Source: a virus. From it: a stretch of 64,000 nt of DNA. Shown here in pieces: positions 5,530 through 64,000 of the stretch. The number at the start of each line of letters is the position of its first letter. Position 1 is the stretch's first letter. The notes under the pieces were generated by a model, which worked only from the letters and a program-made list of their open reading frames with translations, did not search any database and had not been told where the DNA came from. The translations under genes and the position numbers were made by a program. The stretch lies in the UHGV virus genome UHGV-1374997. One strand, written 5' to 3'.

Positions 5530-5594
5530 AAAGTTCTTGACATGGAAAGCATAATTTAATAGGTTGTAAAAAAACATCAACAAGGAGAGAAAAT

Positions 5595-9036: not shown

Positions 9037-9049
9037 TCTAAAAAATCTA

Positions 9050-9096
9050 TTGACATTTGCTTCCGGTTAAAGAATACTCCATTCATCGGAAGCAAA
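9050..9096 (+). promoter_or_regulatory. TTGACA-17-AATACT promoter-like element overlapping a hairpin (tttgcttccg/cggaagcaaa)
   Basis: Lies in the intergenic region upstream of rtcB. Confidence 0.3.
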
Positions 9097-9123
9097 CATT
9101 TTAGAAAGAAGGAGTGTAAGAGA

Positions 9124-10305
9124 ATGTTTGAGGTAAAAGGATCAGTAAGTACAGCTAAGGTTTTCACAGATTATGTGGAGCCGACCGCGTTATCTCAGAT
9201 TATTGAATTATGTAATCAGGAGTTCACCGAAGGAAGTAAAATCCGTATCATGCCTGATGTACATGCTGGCGCTGGATGTGTTATCGGAACGACGATGACC
9301 ATTGAAAACAAGAAAATCGTTCCTAATCTTGTCGGAGTTGATATCGGATGCGGGTTGACATCAGCGCGATATGGTGGTTATGAATTGGGTTTCCTGCAAG
9401 AATATGAAAAAGAAGAAGGCGTATGGGTAAATGATTTTTTAAAAGAATTTGATAGGTTGATTCGGGCAAATATTCCTATGGGCACGAATGTTTGCGAAAA
9501 GTTAATGTACCATCCATTTAGGACACGAATAAAAGAATTGATTTGCGCTAAAAATGTAAATATTGAAAGGGGATATCATAGTATTGGGACTCTTGGTGGT
9601 GGAAATCATTTTATTGAAGTTGGATGCGATATCTTCTCTGAAAATAAAGGGCCTATAGGAGAATTGCGTAGAGATTTTTATATCACGGTTCATTCCGGAT
9701 CTCGTGGTATCGGAAAAGAAGTAGCTACTTATTATCAAAAAATTGCGGAAGAACAATGTAAGGGTGTACCCAAGCATTTAGCGTATTTATCCGGGCAAGC
9801 ATTTGAAGACTATATTCACGATATGCAGATTATGCAGGAATACGCTTCTATCAACCGTGATTGTATAATCGAAAAAGTAACTATGGATTGCGCTTTAATC
9901 GCTCCCTTTCCGGATAGTTACGAAGAAACAATTCATAATTATGTAGAGATTGGAGAAAAGATTATTCTTCGCAAAGGTGCAATTTCCGCGAAAAAAGATG
10001 AAAAAGTTATGATCCCATTAAACATGCGGGATGGTATCATAATCGGAAAAGGTAAGGGCCTTGAGGATTGGAATGAATCCGCGCCTCATGGTGCCGGGCG
10101 CGTACTTAGTCGAGGACAAGCTAAACGGCAATTGTCTGTAGATATTTTCAAGGATCAAATGGAAGGAATCTATTCAACCTGCATAAACGACTCGACGTTG
10201 GATGAAAGCCCTTCCGCATATAAGAGTTCCGATGAGATTTGTAATCATCTCGATTCCGTAGAAATTGTCGGAAGGACTAAACCTATCTATAACATTAAAG
10301 CATAA
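9124..10305 (+). CDS. rtcB: RtcB-family RNA 3'-phosphate ligase
   Basis: IRIMPDVHAGAGCVIGTTMT matches the RtcB metal-binding motif MPDVH.G.G. Size and further His-containing motifs (GGGNHFIE, HSGSRG, HNYV) are consistent. Confidence 0.75.
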   Translation: MFEVKGSVSTAKVFTDYVEPTALSQIIELCNQEFTEGSKIRIMPDVHAGAGCVIGTTMTIENKKIVPNLVGVDIGCGLTSARYGGYELGFLQEYEKEEGVWVNDFLKEFDRLIRANIPMGTNVCEKLMYHPFRTRIKELICAKNVNIERGYHSIGTLGGGNHFIEVGCDIFSENKGPIGELRRDFYITVHSGSRGIGKEVATYYQKIAEEQCKGVPKHLAYLSGQAFEDYIHDMQIMQEYASINRDCIIEKVTMDCALIAPFPDSYEETIHNYVEIGEKIILRKGAISAKKDEKVMIPLNMRDGIIIGKGKGLEDWNESAPHGAGRVLSRGQAKRQLSVDIFKDQMEGIYSTCINDSTLDESPSAYKSSDEICNHLDSVEIVGRTKPIYNIKA

Positions 10306-19374: not shown

Positions 19375-19403
19375 TTGACAAAAATGTAAAAATATGATTT
19401 ACA
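19375..19403 (+). promoter_or_regulatory. TTGACAAAAATGTAAAA motif (shared with 49951)
   Basis: Identical 17-mer upstream of the capsid gene. The -10 is less clear here. Confidence 0.35.
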
Positions 19404-19501
19404 CTATCAAAGTCAATATTGGCAATGCCTCAGTTCGGGATGAATGGGAGGTGCTTTTTACTTTATCTATTTTAAAAATCTCGAAAAGAGGAAGTATTTT
19501 T

Positions 19502-30588: not shown

Positions 30589-30599
30589 GGCGCACCTTG

Positions 30600-31895
30600 A
30601 CCGGAATTTTTACTCTGAAAGTATCTCTTAACATTTCCCTATAAACTGAGTATAATTTAATCATGAAAAGAATGCAAGCATATAAATTCCAGTTACGTCC
30701 TAAAGCCAAGCAAGCAAATCTCATGTTGGGTTTTGCCGGATGCTGTCGCTTTGTATGGAATAAGGCGCTTGCATTAGAGAAAGAAACCTATCAAGAGGAG
30801 GGCAAACGTCTTGGGTATTATAAACTTGCTGGTTTGCTCAAAGATTGGAAAAAGGAAGAAGAAACATCTTTTCTTGCTAGAGCACACTCTCAGATATTGC
30901 AGCAGGTACTAAAAGATCTTGATCGGGCTTACAAAAATTTTTTTGAGAAGCGTGCGGATTTTCCACGATTCAAGAAGAAGGGTGCCCACAATACCTTTCG
31001 ATATCCGCAAGGCTTCAAGTTGGATGAAGGAAATAGTCGCGTTTATCTTCCCAAAATAGGTTGGGTGCGTTACAGAAAAAGCAGGGCTATAGAAGGGACG
31101 CTAAAGCAAGTAGCGGTTTCTCTTTCTGCCGGAGAGTGGTATGTCTCCATCCTGACTGAGAGGGAAGTAGTTGAACATATCCATCCCTCTCAAAGCTCTA
31201 TTGGTATTGATATGGGTGTTGCCCATTTTGCAATGCTCTCTGATGGAAGCACAATTGAACCGTTGAACAGCTTTCGCAAATATGAAAAGAAGTTGGCAAA
31301 ACTGCAACGCAAACAAGCGAGATGCAAAAAGTTTTCCGCCAACTGGCAAAAGGTCAAATCACGCATTCAACGCTTGCACCTCCACATAGCTAATGCTCGC
31401 AAGGACTTTTTGCACAAGGCAAGCACAATGATTAGCAAAAACCACGCTGTTGTTGTACTTGAAGACTTGAAAGTGCGGAATATGTCCAGCTCAAAGACCG
31501 GAGGAAAACGCAAGTCAGGATTGAATAAATCTATATTGGATCAAGGGTGGTTTGAGTTCCGGCGGCAACTGTCTTACAAGCTGGCATGGATGGGTGGATC
31601 TTTGACCGCAATTCCTCCTCAGTATACCAGCCAGACCTGTAGCCGTTGCGGATGTGTAGATAAACAAAACAGACAAACGCAAGCCAAGTTTAAATGTATA
31701 GCTTGCGGATTTGAGATTAACGCCGATCACAATGCGGCGTTGAATATCTTGGCGGCAGGGCTTGCCGTTACAGCCTGTGGAGCGGGAAAGGCTCAAGCGC
31801 CCGCGTTGAATCAGGAACCCGCCTATAGTTTGGCCTAATTGGGCTTTACTGATAGGAATCCCTTGTTTGTAAGAATAAGGGAGGATGCCAAAACG
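30600..31895 (+). mobile_element. IS200/IS605-family TnpB-only element, copy 1
   Basis: Left end lies near ctgaaag (30615). Right end is taattgggctttactgataggaatccc + hairpin + gggaggatgccaaa. No tnpA. Inserted between the L-like and K-like tail genes. Confidence 0.7.
30663..31838 (+). CDS. tnpB: TnpB (OrfB_IS605) RuvC-like RNA-guided nuclease
   Basis: RuvC-I IGIDMGV, RuvC-II VVLEDL, Zn finger CSRCGC...CIACG, RuvC-III NADHNAALNI. 391 aa. Confidence 0.9.
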   Translation: MKRMQAYKFQLRPKAKQANLMLGFAGCCRFVWNKALALEKETYQEEGKRLGYYKLAGLLKDWKKEEETSFLARAHSQILQQVLKDLDRAYKNFFEKRADFPRFKKKGAHNTFRYPQGFKLDEGNSRVYLPKIGWVRYRKSRAIEGTLKQVAVSLSAGEWYVSILTEREVVEHIHPSQSSIGIDMGVAHFAMLSDGSTIEPLNSFRKYEKKLAKLQRKQARCKKFSANWQKVKSRIQRLHLHIANARKDFLHKASTMISKNHAVVVLEDLKVRNMSSSKTGGKRKSGLNKSILDQGWFEFRRQLSYKLAWMGGSLTAIPPQYTSQTCSRCGCVDKQNRQTQAKFKCIACGFEINADHNAALNILAAGLAVTACGAGKAQAPALNQEPAYSLA

Positions 31896-32042
31896 GATAA
31901 AATATGAAAATGAGAGACAAATTTTCAAAATACACAGTAATCCTCCAACTTTAGGCTGGACAGGATGCCAAAACGGATAAAACATGAAAATGAGAGACAA
32001 GTTTTCAAAATACATAGGAATCCCTTTTGTGGATCACGGAAT
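31883..32042 (+). repeat. tandem direct repeat, 2 x 80 bp (about 60 bp conserved)
   Basis: ggatgccaaaacggataaaa(t/c)atgaaaatgagagacaa(a/g)ttttcaaaataca... at 31883 and 31963. The second copy holds the real RBS and start of the NlpC/P60 gene. Confidence 0.8.
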
Positions 32043-43925: not shown

Positions 43926-45205
43926 TGGCATATGCTCCGCGTACCAGCAAAGGTCTTCGATTTTTCCGGGGAACAGGGACAGACCTTGCAACGACATCAT
44001 GGCAGATAATTAATGGTATTTCGGATTGGGCGGCCCCAACACCCACCATCCAATCTATCGATATGACGACGATTAAGGATGAAGCCACTGTATACGCTCC
44101 CGGAATCCGAGAGAGTGGAAGCTCATCTATGACCCTGTATTTTGATGATTTGAATACGATCCACCAGAATCTTTTGATTGCCGATAGTAAATCTGCGGTC
44201 AATATTCCTTATCGTATTGATTTTACAGAAACGGGAACTAGCGTAGCTTTCATGGGGCATCCGACATCCGTTCCAGTATCCGGTTCTGTAGGGTCTGCAA
44301 ATTCAGCAGCTATCACTTTCTACGTTTCAGGCGACCCTGTGTGGGCTTTCGGTTCGGGAAGCAGCCCTGAGCTTGACCCTTCCCAATTTCCGGAATCCAT
44401 AAAAGAAAGATTCGTTATTGTTACCAATGAAGCCGCGATGCTTTCCTTAACAATCACTGATATCCAAAATGGCGATTCAGTGATTGTCAAAGAGCCAAAG
44501 CCTCTTATGTATGCTGTAATCGATGACGGCGCGCTTGGTACAATGGCGGCATTTTATGCGTATCAGTCAAAATCCGATTGGAGTCTTCTTTCCAGCATCC
44601 CCGCCGCATTTAAACCTTCCGCACATGCAGATGAAAGCGCGACATACGGATTAGCAACAACAACTCTGTATGGTCATGCAAAAATAACGACAACTACGCC
44701 AAAAGCTCTTGGCGTAGCCAATATAGGTTCGGAAGACGCATTCGCTAGAGGCGACCATGTTCATCCTGTTCAAAAAGATGTATCAGGGAATGCCGCGACA
44801 GCTACGCAATGGGAAACTCCTAGGACATTCTATATTTCCGGAGTATATAAAGCAGAAGCTATTGTTAATGGAACCCAAAATATAGATTTCGCGTTGGAAA
44901 GAAATATCCAAAGTTTGTCTTCTGGCGCAGGAAACGTTTCTGTTGAATTAATTCCTTCCGTAACCCACATCGTTACAGTGGACCGCGCTTTTACCGTAAC
45001 GCTTCCAGCGGGATTACAATCTGATAAATTCTATGAGTTTCATGCTATACTTAAAGCCGCGAATGCCTCCGCCGCATTAACGATTTCCGAACCTATCCAA
45101 TGGGAAAACAATACGCCTCCTTCTTTGATCGAAAATAAAGTTACTGAAATTCAAATACAAATCTATGGCAATATAAAAATTGGAACATACCGCATATTCA
45201 GTTGA
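43925..45205 (+). CDS. major-tail-protein-like N-terminal domain fused to C-terminal domain (fibre/knob-like)
   Basis: The first 145 aa are paralogous to the major tail protein at 23218 (MAYAPRTSKGLRFFRGTG... versus MAVSYQARTSKGLKFYRGTG...). The C-terminal 280 aa are unrelated. Confidence 0.55.
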   Translation: MAYAPRTSKGLRFFRGTGTDLATTSWQIINGISDWAAPTPTIQSIDMTTIKDEATVYAPGIRESGSSSMTLYFDDLNTIHQNLLIADSKSAVNIPYRIDFTETGTSVAFMGHPTSVPVSGSVGSANSAAITFYVSGDPVWAFGSGSSPELDPSQFPESIKERFVIVTNEAAMLSLTITDIQNGDSVIVKEPKPLMYAVIDDGALGTMAAFYAYQSKSDWSLLSSIPAAFKPSAHADESATYGLATTTLYGHAKITTTTPKALGVANIGSEDAFARGDHVHPVQKDVSGNAATATQWETPRTFYISGVYKAEAIVNGTQNIDFALERNIQSLSSGAGNVSVELIPSVTHIVTVDRAFTVTLPAGLQSDKFYEFHAILKAANASAALTISEPIQWENNTPPSLIENKVTEIQIQIYGNIKIGTYRIFS

Positions 45206-45213
45206 TTTTAACC

Positions 45214-46493
45214 CTGAAAGCACTTCTTGACATTTTCTTACAAACAAGCTATGGTTTAAGCCATGAAAAGAATGCAAGCATATAAATTCCAGCTCCGCCC
45301 CAAAGCCAAGCAAGCAAATCTCATGTTGGGTTTTGCCGGATGCTGTCGCTTTGTCTGGAATAAGGCGCTTGCATTGGAGAAAGAAACCTATCAAGCGGAG
45401 GGCAAACGTCTTGGGTTTTATAACCTTTGTAAGGCCCTCCGCGATTGGAAAAAGGAAGAAGAAACATCTTTTCTTGCTGGAGCACACTCTCAGATATTGC
45501 AGTTTGTATTGAAGGATCTTGATCAGGCTTACAAAAATTTCTTTGAGAAGCGTGCAAATTTCCCACGATTCAAGAAGAAGGGTGTCCACAATACCTTTCG
45601 TTATCCGCAAGGCTTCAAGTTGGATGAAGGAAATAGCCGCATTTATCTTCCCAAAATAGGTTGGGTGCGTTACAGAAAAAGCAGGGTCATAGAAGGGACG
45701 CCAAAGCAAGTAGCGGTTTCTCTTTCTGCCGGAGAGTGGTATGTCTCCATCCTGACTGAGAGGGAAGTAGTTGAACATATCCATCCCTCTCAAAGCTCTA
45801 TTGGTATTGATATGGGTGTTGCCCATTTTGCAATGCTCTCTGATGGAAGCACAATTGAACCGTTGAACAGCTTTCGCAAATATGAAAAGAAGTTGGCAAA
45901 ACTGCAACGCAAACAAGCGAGATGCAAAAAGTTTTCCGCCAACTGGCAAAAGGTCAAATCACGCATTCAACGCTTGCACCTCCACATAGCTAATGCTCGC
46001 AAGGACTTTTTGCACAAGGCAAGCACAATGATTAGCAAAAACCACGCTGTTGTTGTACTTGAAGACTTGAAAGTGCGGAATATGTCCAGCTCAAAGACCG
46101 GAGGAAAACGCAAGTCAGGATTGAATAAATCTATATTGGATCAAGGGTGGTTTGAGTTCCGGCGGCAACTGTCTTACAAGCTGGCATGGATGGGTGGATC
46201 TTTGACCGCAATTCCTCCTCAGTATACCAGCCAGACCTGTAGCCGTTGCGGATGTGTAGATAAACAAAACAGACAAACGCAAGCCAAGTTTAAATGTATA
46301 GCTTGCGGATTTGAGATTAACGCCGATCACAATGCGGCGTTGAATATCTTGGCGGCAGGGCTTGCCGTTACAGCCTGTGGAGCGGGAAAGGCTCAAGCGC
46401 CCGCGTTGAATCAGGAACCCGCCTATAGTTTGGCCTAATTGGGCTTTACTGATAGGAATCCCCCGCTTTTAGGCGGGGGAGGATGTCAAATAA
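45214..46493 (+). mobile_element. IS200/IS605-family TnpB-only element, copy 2
   Basis: Left end cctgaaagcacttcttgacatttt. Right end taattgggctttactgataggaatccc + ccgcttttaggcgggg hairpin + gaggatgtcaaataa. Confidence 0.7.
45263..46438 (+). CDS. tnpB: TnpB (OrfB_IS605) RuvC-like RNA-guided nuclease
   Basis: 391 aa. The C-terminal 230 aa are identical to copy 1. The N-terminal region matches copy 3. Confidence 0.9.
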   Translation: MKRMQAYKFQLRPKAKQANLMLGFAGCCRFVWNKALALEKETYQAEGKRLGFYNLCKALRDWKKEEETSFLAGAHSQILQFVLKDLDQAYKNFFEKRANFPRFKKKGVHNTFRYPQGFKLDEGNSRIYLPKIGWVRYRKSRVIEGTPKQVAVSLSAGEWYVSILTEREVVEHIHPSQSSIGIDMGVAHFAMLSDGSTIEPLNSFRKYEKKLAKLQRKQARCKKFSANWQKVKSRIQRLHLHIANARKDFLHKASTMISKNHAVVVLEDLKVRNMSSSKTGGKRKSGLNKSILDQGWFEFRRQLSYKLAWMGGSLTAIPPQYTSQTCSRCGCVDKQNRQTQAKFKCIACGFEINADHNAALNILAAGLAVTACGAGKAQAPALNQEPAYSLA

Positions 46494-46582
46494 CTCCGTC
46501 GACGGTCGTGGACGCATTTCAATATTTAAAACTCTGCGCTATATTGCCCCCATGATGTTAATCATCACTTGGGGGCTTTATT

Positions 46583-54011: not shown

Positions 54012-54107
54012 ATATGGACCTCCATAATTAATCGTATTTTATTGATAAGGTTCCAGCGGAAAGAAACCACGCCAGTCTATAGACAGCTCCACTAAGTTGG
54101 TCTTTGC

Positions 54108-55375
54108 TTATTTGACATCCTCCCCCGCCTAAAGTCGGGGGATTCCTATCAGTAAGGCCCAATTAGACCAAACTATAGGCGGGTTCCTGATTCAACGCGG
54201 GCGCTTGAGCCCTTCCCGCTCCACAGGCTGTAACGGCAAGCCCTGCCGCCAAAATGTTCAACGCCGCATTGTGATCAGCGTTAAATTCAAATCCGCAAGC
54301 TGTACATTTAAATTTGGCTTGCGTTTGTCTGTTTTGTTTATCCACACATCCGCAACGGCTACAGGTCTGGCTGGTATACTGAGGAGGGATTGCGACCAAA
54401 GATCCACCCAACCATGCCAGCTTGTATGTCAACTGCCGCCGGAACTCAAACCACCCTTGATCCAATATAGACTTATTCAAACCTGACTTGCGTTTTCCTC
54501 CTGCCTTTGAGCTGGACATATTCCGCACTTTCAAGTCCTCAAGCACAACAACAGCGTGGTTTTTGCTAATCATTGTGCTTGTCTTGTGCAGAAAGTCCTT
54601 GCGAGCATTAGCTATGTGGAGGTGCAAGCGTTGAATGCGTGATTTGATCTTTTGCCAGTTGGAGGAAAACTTTTTGCATCTTGCTTGTTTGCGTTGCAGT
54701 TTTGCCAACTTCTTTTCATATTTGCGAAAGCTATTCAACGGTTCAATTGTGTTTCCATCAGAGAGCGTTGCAAAATGAGCAACACCCATATCAATACCAA
54801 TAAAACTTTTAGACGGATGAATAGGCTCCGGAGCTTCACGCTCTGTCAGAATGGATACATACCATTCTCCAGCAGAAAGAGAAACCGCTACTTGCTTGAG
54901 AGTCCCTTTTATAGCCCGGCTTTTTCTGTAACGCACCCAACCTATTTTGGGAAGATAAACGCGGCTATTTCCTTCATCCAACTTGAAGCCTTGCGGATAG
55001 CGAAAGGTGTTGTGAGCACCTTTCTTCTTGAATTGAGGGAAATTTGCACGCTTCTCAAAGAAATTTTTGTAAGCCTGATCAAGATCCTTCAATACAAACT
55101 GCAATATCTGAGAGTGCGCTCCAGCAAGAAAAGATGTTTCTTCTTCCTTTTTCCAATCACGGAGGGCCTTACAAAGGTTATAAAACCCAAGCCGTTTTCC
55201 CTCCGCTTGATATGTTTCTTTCTCCAATGCAAGCGCCTTATTCCAGACGAAACGGCAGCACCCGGCAAAACTCAACATGAGATTTGCTTGTTTGGCTTTA
55301 GGACGTAACTGGAATTTGTATGCTTGCATTCTTTTCATGGCTTAAATTATACTCAGTTTATAGGTAAATGTCAAG
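54108..55375 (-). mobile_element. IS200/IS605-family TnpB-only element, copy 3 (inverted)
   Basis: The right end matches copy 2 through gggggaggatgtcaaataa. The left end carries a 68-bp copy-specific segment with a G9 tract. Beyond that, 55443-55476 matches the upstream flank of copy 1. Confidence 0.7.
54163..55338 (-). CDS. tnpB: TnpB (OrfB_IS605) RuvC-like RNA-guided nuclease
   Basis: 391 aa. Motifs IGIDMGV, VVLEDL, CSRCGC...CTACG and NADHNAALNI are intact. About 93% identical to copies 1 and 2. Confidence 0.9.
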   Translation of the reverse strand: MKRMQAYKFQLRPKAKQANLMLSFAGCCRFVWNKALALEKETYQAEGKRLGFYNLCKALRDWKKEEETSFLAGAHSQILQFVLKDLDQAYKNFFEKRANFPQFKKKGAHNTFRYPQGFKLDEGNSRVYLPKIGWVRYRKSRAIKGTLKQVAVSLSAGEWYVSILTEREAPEPIHPSKSFIGIDMGVAHFATLSDGNTIEPLNSFRKYEKKLAKLQRKQARCKKFSSNWQKIKSRIQRLHLHIANARKDFLHKTSTMISKNHAVVVLEDLKVRNMSSSKAGGKRKSGLNKSILDQGWFEFRRQLTYKLAWLGGSLVAIPPQYTSQTCSRCGCVDKQNRQTQAKFKCTACGFEFNADHNAALNILAAGLAVTACGAGRAQAPALNQEPAYSLV

Positions 55376-55559
55376 TTATTTTTTTTTCGGGATAGGGGGG
55401 GGGGTTATCGCAAGTCTTTATAGTCTATTATTCATGAGTAAAGGCAAAAATTCCAGTTAAGGTGCGCCTTATATCCTCCCCCTAAAGAGAGAGAGAGGTT
55501 TTACGGCGCGTCCGATAAAAAGCATATAATGTGGCTTACGAAATTATTATTCATGGATT

Positions 55560-63336: not shown

Positions 63337-63433
63337 TACCTCATCTCCTTGTGTTAAGATCAACCTACCCTACTTTGAGTTTTCATGCAACAAAATTTTC
63401 TATTTTATGAAAAAATTTTAGCTCCGAAAATAC

Positions 63434-63590
63434 TCCCCACCTGTCCCAAAAATGTTAGCTTGGATCGAGATCCCCACCTCGTCCAAAAATGTTAGCTTGC
63501 CTCGCATCCCCCACCTCTTTCGTTTACGTTAGCTCGGCTGGCATTCCCCACCTGTCCCAAAAATGTTAGCTTGGATCGAGATCCCCACCT
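63434..63590. repeat. array of about 4.3 direct repeats of roughly 37 bp (iteron-like)
   Basis: Units begin TCCCCACCT....AAAATGTTAGCTTG. Units 1 and 4 are identical (63434-63470, 63545-63581). Units 2 and 3 are diverged. Confidence 0.8.
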
Positions 63591-63950: not shown

Positions 63951-64000
63951 GGGTTAGACGTGCTCAAGCTGTACCGTGCTCAAGCTGTACCGTGCTCAAG
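63951..64000. repeat. 16-bp tandem repeat cgtgctcaagctgtac x about 3 (truncated by window end)
   Basis: Seen directly in the sequence. Confidence 0.7.

Follow-up and report, generated by a model that had tools for sequence, protein, structure and literature searches.

The 64,000-nt window analyzed here (UHGV virus genome UHGV-1374997) contains three copies of an IS605-type element, each with a tnpB open reading frame (ORF) of 391 amino acids and a short module at the 3' end of that gene. Copies 1, 2 and 3 all close with TAATTGGGCYTTACTGATAGGAATC, a hairpin and then GGAGGATGYCAA. The modules had been predicted at 31839-31895, 46439-46493 and, on the minus strand, 54108-54162, and all three are indeed there, within repeats of approximately 1.27-1.29 kb whose copies are 92-96% identical (92-95% for the 1.27-kb repeats). 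Their location inside 1.27-kb repeats excludes a chance occurrence. As judged from the comparisons below, the modules very probably constitute the omega-RNA 3' end and, at the same time, the right-hand limit of each of three IS605-type TnpB elements. Coordinates are summarized in Table 1.

The tnpB ORFs carry the Pfam domains HTH_OrfB_IS605, OrfB_IS605 and Cas12f1-like_TNB, and the protein is homologous to ISDra2 TnpB over residues 3-369. D183, E267 and D355, together with C326, C329, C345 and C348, are invariant in copies 1-3, with the RuvC D-E-D triad and the zinc finger intact. All three ORFs are open, and at 4-8% amino acid divergence their catalytic residues are unchanged. These residues were assigned by motif to the catalytic residues of ISDra2, of which D191 is taken from PMC8612924.

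The original prediction had the module ending in CAAA. Conservation in copies 1-3 runs to GGATG(T/C)CAA and no further, so that the final A and the remaining bases of the predicted intervals are flanking DNA. The element ends exactly after CAA (31891, 46489 and, on the minus strand, 54112), as seen from seven independent flanks and from empty sites in 9-10 sister phages. Seven further copies, in sister phages of one metagenome, were picked up by scanning viral contigs for the exact pattern, and across seven different flanks similarity stops right after CAA. The flanking base that follows is A in all three window copies by coincidence; over 102 homologues the first flank column is T30/A24/G24/C24. 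In alignment A3 (102 distinct sequences), conservation is 96-100% over columns 252-260 and at a random level in column 261. The blocks on both sides of the hairpin are likewise 96-100% conserved.

This module also stands at the end of more than 100 related TnpB elements, whose hosts range from gut Desulfovibrio to many Proteobacteria. The closest TnpB relatives are found in gut Desulfovibrio and Mailhella (75-76% amino acid identity), followed by many Proteobacteria at 54-60% and by further viral contigs. Allowing at most 2 mismatches in the 12-mer, the right-end (RE) module GTAGGAATC-hairpin-GGAGGATGTCAA was identified in 113 of 126 loci encoding TnpB relatives, where it sits just 3' of tnpB and its upstream part reads G-TAGGAATC. 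A broad module scan of viral contigs hit at least 120 stretches and is no census of the sister phages. The element junction is the standard omega-RNA/RE junction of TnpB elements, ordinary for such elements, in a widespread clade related to ISDra2.

Table 1. Features of the three TnpB elements in the window
Feature	Position	Strand	Basis or remark
Copy 1 tnpB ORF, 391 aa	30663..31838	+	Pfam domains; ISDra2 TnpB match E 2e-58
Copy 2 tnpB ORF, 391 aa	45263..46438	+	
Copy 3 tnpB ORF, 391 aa	54163..55338	-	
Copy 1 terminal hairpin, AT-rich, UCCCUUGUUU-GUAA-GAAUAAGGGA	31859..31882	+	
Copy 1 invariant 3' tail, GGATGCCAA	31883..31891	+	Columns 252-260 of alignment A3
Copy 2 terminal hairpin; tail	46459-46480; 46481-46489	+	
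Copy 3 terminal hairpin; tail	54121-54142; 54112-54120	-	
Copy 1 minimal omega-RNA scaffold (putative)	31744..31891	+	Last 95 nt of tnpB plus 53-nt right end
Copy 2 omega-RNA scaffold (putative)	46344..46489	+	
Copy 3 omega-RNA scaffold (putative)	54112..54257	-	
Copy 1 predicted guide, AACGGATAAAATATGAAAAT	31892..31911	+	20/20 versus L016 empty site after TTTTAT
Copy 2 predicted guide, ATAACTCCGTCGACGGTCGT	46490..46509	+	20/20 in 9 sister phages after CTTAA/TTAAA
Copy 3 predicted guide, ATAAGCAAAGACCAACTTAG	54092..54111	-	20/20 in 10 sister phages after GATTAT
Copy 1 truncated left end, begins GGCGCACC downstream of the left-end hairpin	30589..30662	+	
Copy 1 promoter-like site, TTAACA-17-TATAAT	30628-30656	+	Promoter scan
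Copy 2 further-truncated left end with -35-like TTGACA	45200..45262	+	
Copy 3 left end: full-length start CGGACGCGCCGTAAAACC, CT-expanded hairpin, GGATATAAGGCGCACC...	55339..55514	-	Alignment with Desulfovibrio left ends
Decayed second right-end module, ACAGTAATCC-TCCAACTTTAGGCTGGAC-AGGATGCCAA	31934..31971	+	nhmmer E 6e-4

Terminal hairpin and putative omega-RNA scaffold

The hairpin differs between the copies, as had been noted, and five forms were seen in all. The copy 1 hairpin, whose AU-rich stem has 10 bp and whose loop is GUAA, reaches -13.9 kcal/mol on folding (z -2.8). Copies 2 and 3 have a GC stem of 7-9 bp, with a UUUA loop in copy 2. The copy 2 hairpin is CCCCCGC-TTTTAG-GCGGGGG; that of copy 3, CCCCCGACTTTAGGCGGGGG, differs from it at two positions and not at one, as was first described. 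The copy 3 type, nearly identical to that of copy 2, also occurs in four sisters. The AT-rich hairpin (CCCTTGTTTGTAAGAATAAGGG and CCTTTGTTTATAAGAATAAGG) with a GCCAA tip is found in copy 1 and in a sister-phage element, L202, and two tnpB-less partial copies (L001 and L007, described below) have CCCTCGTCTAAAAGCGGGGG. All variants fold at the same position (z -2.5 to -4.5). In a third partial copy, L005, the stem equals that of window positions 46459-46480 (CCCCCGC/GCGGGGG) and the loop is reverse-complemented, CTAAAA versus TTTTAG, which looks like an inversion templated by the palindrome. The flipped loop is present in all three of these solo modules (L001, L005 and L007).

A structured RNA had been proposed from a compensatory stem change among the three copies. 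Copies 2 and 3 differ from copy 1 by exchange of the entire hairpin and not by compensatory point changes, and it is the 102 homologues that provide the covariation. Among them, 94.6% of the cells in the stem are paired, versus 47-70% when the partner is slid, and there are 104 double-sided changes versus 30.6 in shuffles, with the observed values reached by none of 500 shuffles. T-G wobbles are confined to the top strand, which fits a top-strand hairpin, DNA or RNA alike.

The conserved structured region lies on the tnpB sense strand and spans the tnpB stop codon (31836-31838 in copy 1, and likewise in copies 2 and 3). In the 102 homologues, RNAalifold identified covarying helices upstream of the terminal hairpin as well, with 14-49 double changes per pair; one instance is the alternation of GCGGC/GCCGU with GGGC/GCCC and GCGCG/CGCG. 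The equivalent of 31744..31891 is also the shortest stretch retained in the tnpB-less partial copies L005 and L001. The alignment supports a view of the module as the 3' end of a predicted structured RNA region that overlaps the 3' end of tnpB.

A permissive Rfam scan covering 341 nt of the copy 2 3' region returned likenesses to two families, both below their gathering thresholds. HgcC (RF00062) matched 46380-46497 (33.3 bits, E 3e-6), covering the 8-bp hairpin, the UUUA loop and the GAGGAUGUCA tail; its consensus ...CCccCGcccUUuAgggCGggGAGGAGGUCA aligns with hairpin and tail. RAGATH-18 (RF03064) matched 46374-46417 (33.6 bits), with CCUGUGGAG...GAAUCAGGAA and the inner CCUGUGGAG...GAAGCAGGAA helix aligned. 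HgcC was defined in archaea, and the AT-rich hairpin of copy 1 departs from the family consensus. Sense overlapping transcripts (sotRNAs) at the 3' ends of IS1341-type tnpB genes have an RE-like tetraloop in common with HgcC (Gomes-Filho 2015, PMC4615843).

The layout closely resembles that of ISDra2, in which the right-end RNA (reRNA) derives from the tnpB 3' end and the RE, with approximately 16 nt of flank as guide (PMC8612924). The cryo-electron microscopy structure of the ISDra2 omega-RNA shows four stems (1-4) together with a pseudoknot made by nucleotides -5..-3, with -1A standing before the guide; the loop of stem 4 is a UUUA tetraloop at -20..-17, and the WED domain binds this stem mainly by electrostatic interactions (PMC10097598). 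Here too the RNA would be encoded by the tnpB 3' end and the RE, with a UUUA-loop penultimate stem about 20 nt from the scaffold end, a short conserved tail, a flank-derived guide and a transposon-associated motif (TAM) that is the transposon target site. In copy 2 the UUUA loop lies at -22..-19 and is followed by GGCGGGGG-AGGAUGUCAA, which suggests that the hairpin corresponds to ISDra2 stem 4 and the tail to the pseudoknot strand and linker. Tail UGUC (-6..-3) can pair with GRCA in the loop of the first helix (46359-46362), with 95.3% of cells paired and 5 compensatory cells; all three GCCAA variants have a G partner, and there are two U-A swaps. For another potential partner, AYRU, which lies further 5' (AUAU at 46344-46347), 92.5% of cells are paired, which is not above shuffles. 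Differences from ISDra2 include the TAM (TTGAT there, a TAM-like TTA[T/A/C] here) and the helix spacing, the candidate pseudoknot partner lying approximately 130 nt upstream here and 105 nt there. The elements described here are phage-borne and lack tnpA. Covarying helices, sub-threshold likeness to HgcC and RAGATH-18, and the ISDra2-like layout all agree with the original assignment of the module to the omega-RNA 3' region.

Predicted guides, empty sites and the candidate TAM

Comparison with empty sites of related phages, which had been suggested as a means of mapping guide and TAM, proved informative on both counts. Orthologous regions of 9-10 sister phages were fetched via the flanking genes (95-100% protein identity), and all three window insertion sites are unoccupied in them. 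The empty alleles read ...TTTTATAAYGGATAAAACATG for copy 1, ...GGATAATCTTAA|ATAACTCCG for copy 2 and ...GCAGATTAT|ATAAGCAAAG for copy 3. The 20 nt after CAA are identical to the empty alleles at 19-20 of 20 positions; for copy 1, the predicted guide has 1-3 mismatches to eight other sister phages besides the one listed in Table 1. The would-be guide lies directly beyond the module, as had been expected, with the correction that it starts 3-4 nt earlier than implied.

In the empty alleles the guide match is preceded by TTAT, TTAA (or TAAA), TTAT, TTAC and CTAA, and a sixth site (L002) has TTAA at the junction, where an extra A in the window allele breaks the guide match. Bacterial relatives are inserted after TTTAC, TTGAC or TTAY. 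TTAH, which occurs at 1.6% of window positions, is by this comparison the likely TAM of these elements.

The window itself holds three empty alleles of sister insertions that match sister guides, making the window phage a potential target. One (9159-9178) is preceded by GCTAA and shows 0 differences from the sister guide, another (19403-19422) is preceded by TTTAC and shows 1 difference, and the third (5560-5580) is preceded by TTTAA and has an extra A (indel). Each phage genome has several tnpA-less copies, and across near-identical sister phages at least 6 different sites are occupied in a presence/absence pattern, each beside a TAM-like motif. With the module, the scaffold/guide junction is placed exactly and TTAH is obtained as a likely TAM for a widespread ISDra2-related TnpB clade, both of which are needed for testing or reprogramming these nucleases. 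Near-identical phages of one metagenome, with varied site occupancy, no tnpA and every guide matching the empty allele of a sister, also provide a natural data set on which TnpB-driven homing between viruses could be examined.

Left ends, loss of tnpA and partial copies

Among 80 bacterial relatives, 61 have a divergent HUH tnpA gene between the left end (LE) and tnpB. The bacterial LE starts immediately after the TTTAC, TTGAC or TTAY and has its own GC hairpin with a TTCA loop. No tnpA was found in the 64-kb window (best tblastn E 0.26) or beside any of the sister-phage copies, so TnpA could move a copy only if the host supplied the enzyme in trans. Copies 1 and 2 start inside the LE, 3' of its hairpin, and are consequently not movable by TnpA. 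The LE hairpin is kept in copy 3 only, in a CT-expanded form; there the LE start follows TTAT, tnpA is deleted, and a TTGACA..TATAAT motif comes next. A promoter-like TTGACA...TATAAT segment stands immediately 5' of tnpB in all copies. With respect to TnpA, hairpins at both ends and clean insertion, the phage copies do not qualify as autonomous IS605 elements.

The left end of copy 1 is homologous to LE-internal sequence of Desulfovibrio elements, in which GGCGCACC-type sequence is preceded by GGATATAA. At the copy 1 junction, phage sequence ...AATGGATAA (stop codon ...GGATAA) is fused to LE-internal GGCGCACC. The 9-nt repeat AAYGGATAA flanking this copy was considered as a target-site duplication and rejected in favor of a crossover between phage GGATAA and LE-internal GGATATAA; such a crossover at microhomology accounts for the apparent repeat and for the restored last codons (N-G-stop) of the upstream gene. 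A left boundary at CTTGACA, where the alignment of the phage copies starts, with a TAM TTTAA before the ATG, was also rejected. The true LE of bacterial elements lies approximately 510 nt upstream of tnpB, with tnpA between, and AAAAAGTTCTTGACAT is a promoter-like motif that the phage also has outside the elements. At the copy 3 site, a stretch of approximately 85 nt that the sister phages have between two TTAT sites is absent. Where tnpA was lost, between the copy 3 LE and the promoter-like site (window 55390-55450, minus strand), there are homopolymer runs of C10 and then A9 (gataaCCCCCCCCCCtatcccgAAAAAAAAAtaa).

Three partial copies in sister phages lack tnpB: L007:1212-1460, L005:2873-3019 and L001:4952-5091, all on the minus strand (sister contigs 125712 and 150955). 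All that they retain is the last ~147-230 nt, i.e. the RNA scaffold and RE, with flank-derived guides of their own. L007 sits exactly at TTTA(C/T)|, just 3' of a TTGACA -35-like motif, and contig 125712 has one full tnpB and two tnpB-less modules. As far as their sequences indicate, the tnpB-less modules may be trans-acting guide genes or mere deletion remnants. The copy-1-type element L202:1500-2729 (contig 122762) replaces approximately 120 nt of phage DNA (window ~9040-9158), among them a promoter-like segment and codons 1-12 of the gene that follows; the AT-rich hairpin of the element is in frame with that gene, with no stop codon.

A fourth, decayed copy of the module, overlooked in the original prediction, lies at 31934-31971 and no longer folds (z -0.18). 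It is part of an 80-nt tandem duplication with units 31882-31943 and 31962-32023. The duplication brings together the tip of the right end, the 9-nt AACGGATAA and codons 1-11 of an NlpC/P60 gene, and its unit borders are at a common ATAGGAATCC (in the RE and in gene codons 11-14). The single nucleotide polymorphisms are those of the L016-type allele in unit 1 and of the L008-type allele in unit 2, as if two phage alleles had recombined at this locus. The neighboring genes are phage structural genes, with a 1366-amino-acid ORF at the tape-measure position and the NlpC/P60 tail protein. No match to the copy 1 region was found among GenBank phages by megablast.

Candidate role in the phage and alternative explanations

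A transcript running across tnpB would form several helices in its final ~150 nt. The variable hairpin would be the equivalent of ISDra2 stem 4; as stem 4 is held by WED mainly via the backbone, the hairpin sequence would be free to vary provided that pairing holds. The invariant GGAGGAUGUCAA tail would act as the pseudoknot and linker that places the guide, the 16-20 nt after CAA. The TnpB-RNA complex is then predicted to cut the empty allele preceded by TTA[T/A/C], in a co-infecting sister phage or after loss of the element, and recombinational repair would copy the element into the cut allele (homing). Self-cleavage would be avoided because the guide match in the occupied genome is preceded by CCAA or TCAA, not TTAH. 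ISDra2 TnpB cuts TAM-adjacent targets, and repair of the break from the occupied copy has been proposed (PMC8612924). For plasmids, there is a report of a TnpA-independent TnpB gene drive; for phages, such a drive has been put forward in reviews (PMC11870625; PMC13565253).

The direct support consists of sequence conservation, covariation, the exact boundary, the empty sites with their TAM-like motif and the intact catalytic residues. We infer expression of the RNA, its binding by TnpB, cleavage and homing in the phage. The phage copies most likely persist by RNA-guided homing. It is possible, if rather less than probable, that (probably Desulfovibrio) phages use such tnpA-less TnpB cassettes for RNA-guided homing or allele exclusion against co-infecting sisters. 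Guides would target the empty allele of the competitor, spread would occur by break-induced recombination and not by transposition, and some genomes would carry tnpB-less, promoter-proximal solo omega-RNAs that could be served in trans.

Several observations weigh against an omega-RNA in the phage. The phage copies are 92-96% identical, so conservation could partly mean recent origin. The hairpin covariation does not distinguish between a hairpin in RNA and the one that TnpA uses in top-strand DNA of the tnpA-bearing relatives (61/80). The single-sequence fold of the ~147-nt region beats shuffles weakly (z -0.9 to -2.2). The Rfam scores fall short of the gathering thresholds (33.3 versus 50 bits for HgcC and 33.6 versus 44.9 for RAGATH-18), and at gathering thresholds Rfam found nothing over the whole window. 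The pseudoknot partner is ambiguous, with two mutually exclusive pairings of the tail, each more than 92% paired.

One alternative is that the module is only a DNA signal, namely the IS605 right end for TnpA, in which the hairpin is the binding site, GAAT guides cleavage and TCAA is cleaved, with no RNA role in the phage. The right end has the subterminal hairpin, the GAAT just 5' of it and the TCAA tip of the TnpA substrate of IS608/IS605 from Helicobacter pylori, with a TTAC-like target at the left flank, and the divergent tnpA of the bacterial relatives is arranged as in IS605. This geometry resembles that of IS608 (target TTAC, RE tip TCAA). The similar GC hairpin with a TTCA loop in the LE of tnpA-bearing relatives and the top-strand wobbles, which fit DNA or RNA, also agree with it. 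In the bacterial ancestors, the hairpin, upstream GAAT and tip TCAA were very likely a TnpA recognition and cleavage site as well. The phage copies differ from IS608/IS605 in lacking tnpA, in lacking the LE hairpin in two of three cases, and in having junctions with microhomology, a 9-nt repeat and a ~85-nt deletion, unlike clean peel-and-paste. The RE and the tnpB ORFs have nevertheless stayed intact, the tnpB-less partial copies retain precisely the RNA-coding stretch, and the invariant tail and upstream helices reach well past what a TnpA site needs. With tnpA and most of the left end lost, only the RNA role can still be under selection, and a signal confined to DNA appears quite improbable for the phage.

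Equally improbable is that the copies are recent, decaying remnants, functionless in the phage, whose module is conserved for want of time. The truncated, microhomology-joined left ends, the decayed RE copy and the 92-96% identity among copies are in line with decay. Against it, all three 391-amino-acid ORFs are open with catalytic residues invariant despite 4-8% divergence, each copy has a promoter-like motif, and the hairpin variants differ yet keep pairing. The tnpA-less design also recurs at the 6 or more sister-phage sites, present in some phages and absent from others, with a TAM-like motif at each. That the hairpin is an intrinsic terminator of tnpB or of flanking phage genes, a possibility the original prediction had raised against itself and which a GC-rich hairpin shortly after a stop codon might suggest, can be dismissed, since there is no U-run after it on either strand, the terminator scan made no call, an invariant purine-rich 12-mer follows, and the distance of the hairpin from the element end is fixed in more than 100 elements.

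Other repeats in the window include ~4-5 tandem copies of a 37-nt unit (TCCCCACCTGTCCCAAAAATGTTAGCTTGGATCGAGA; 70-80% matches) at 63411-63590 and a perfect 16-nt x 2.6 repeat at 63959-64000. They have no relation to the TnpB elements and may represent iterons or binding sites.

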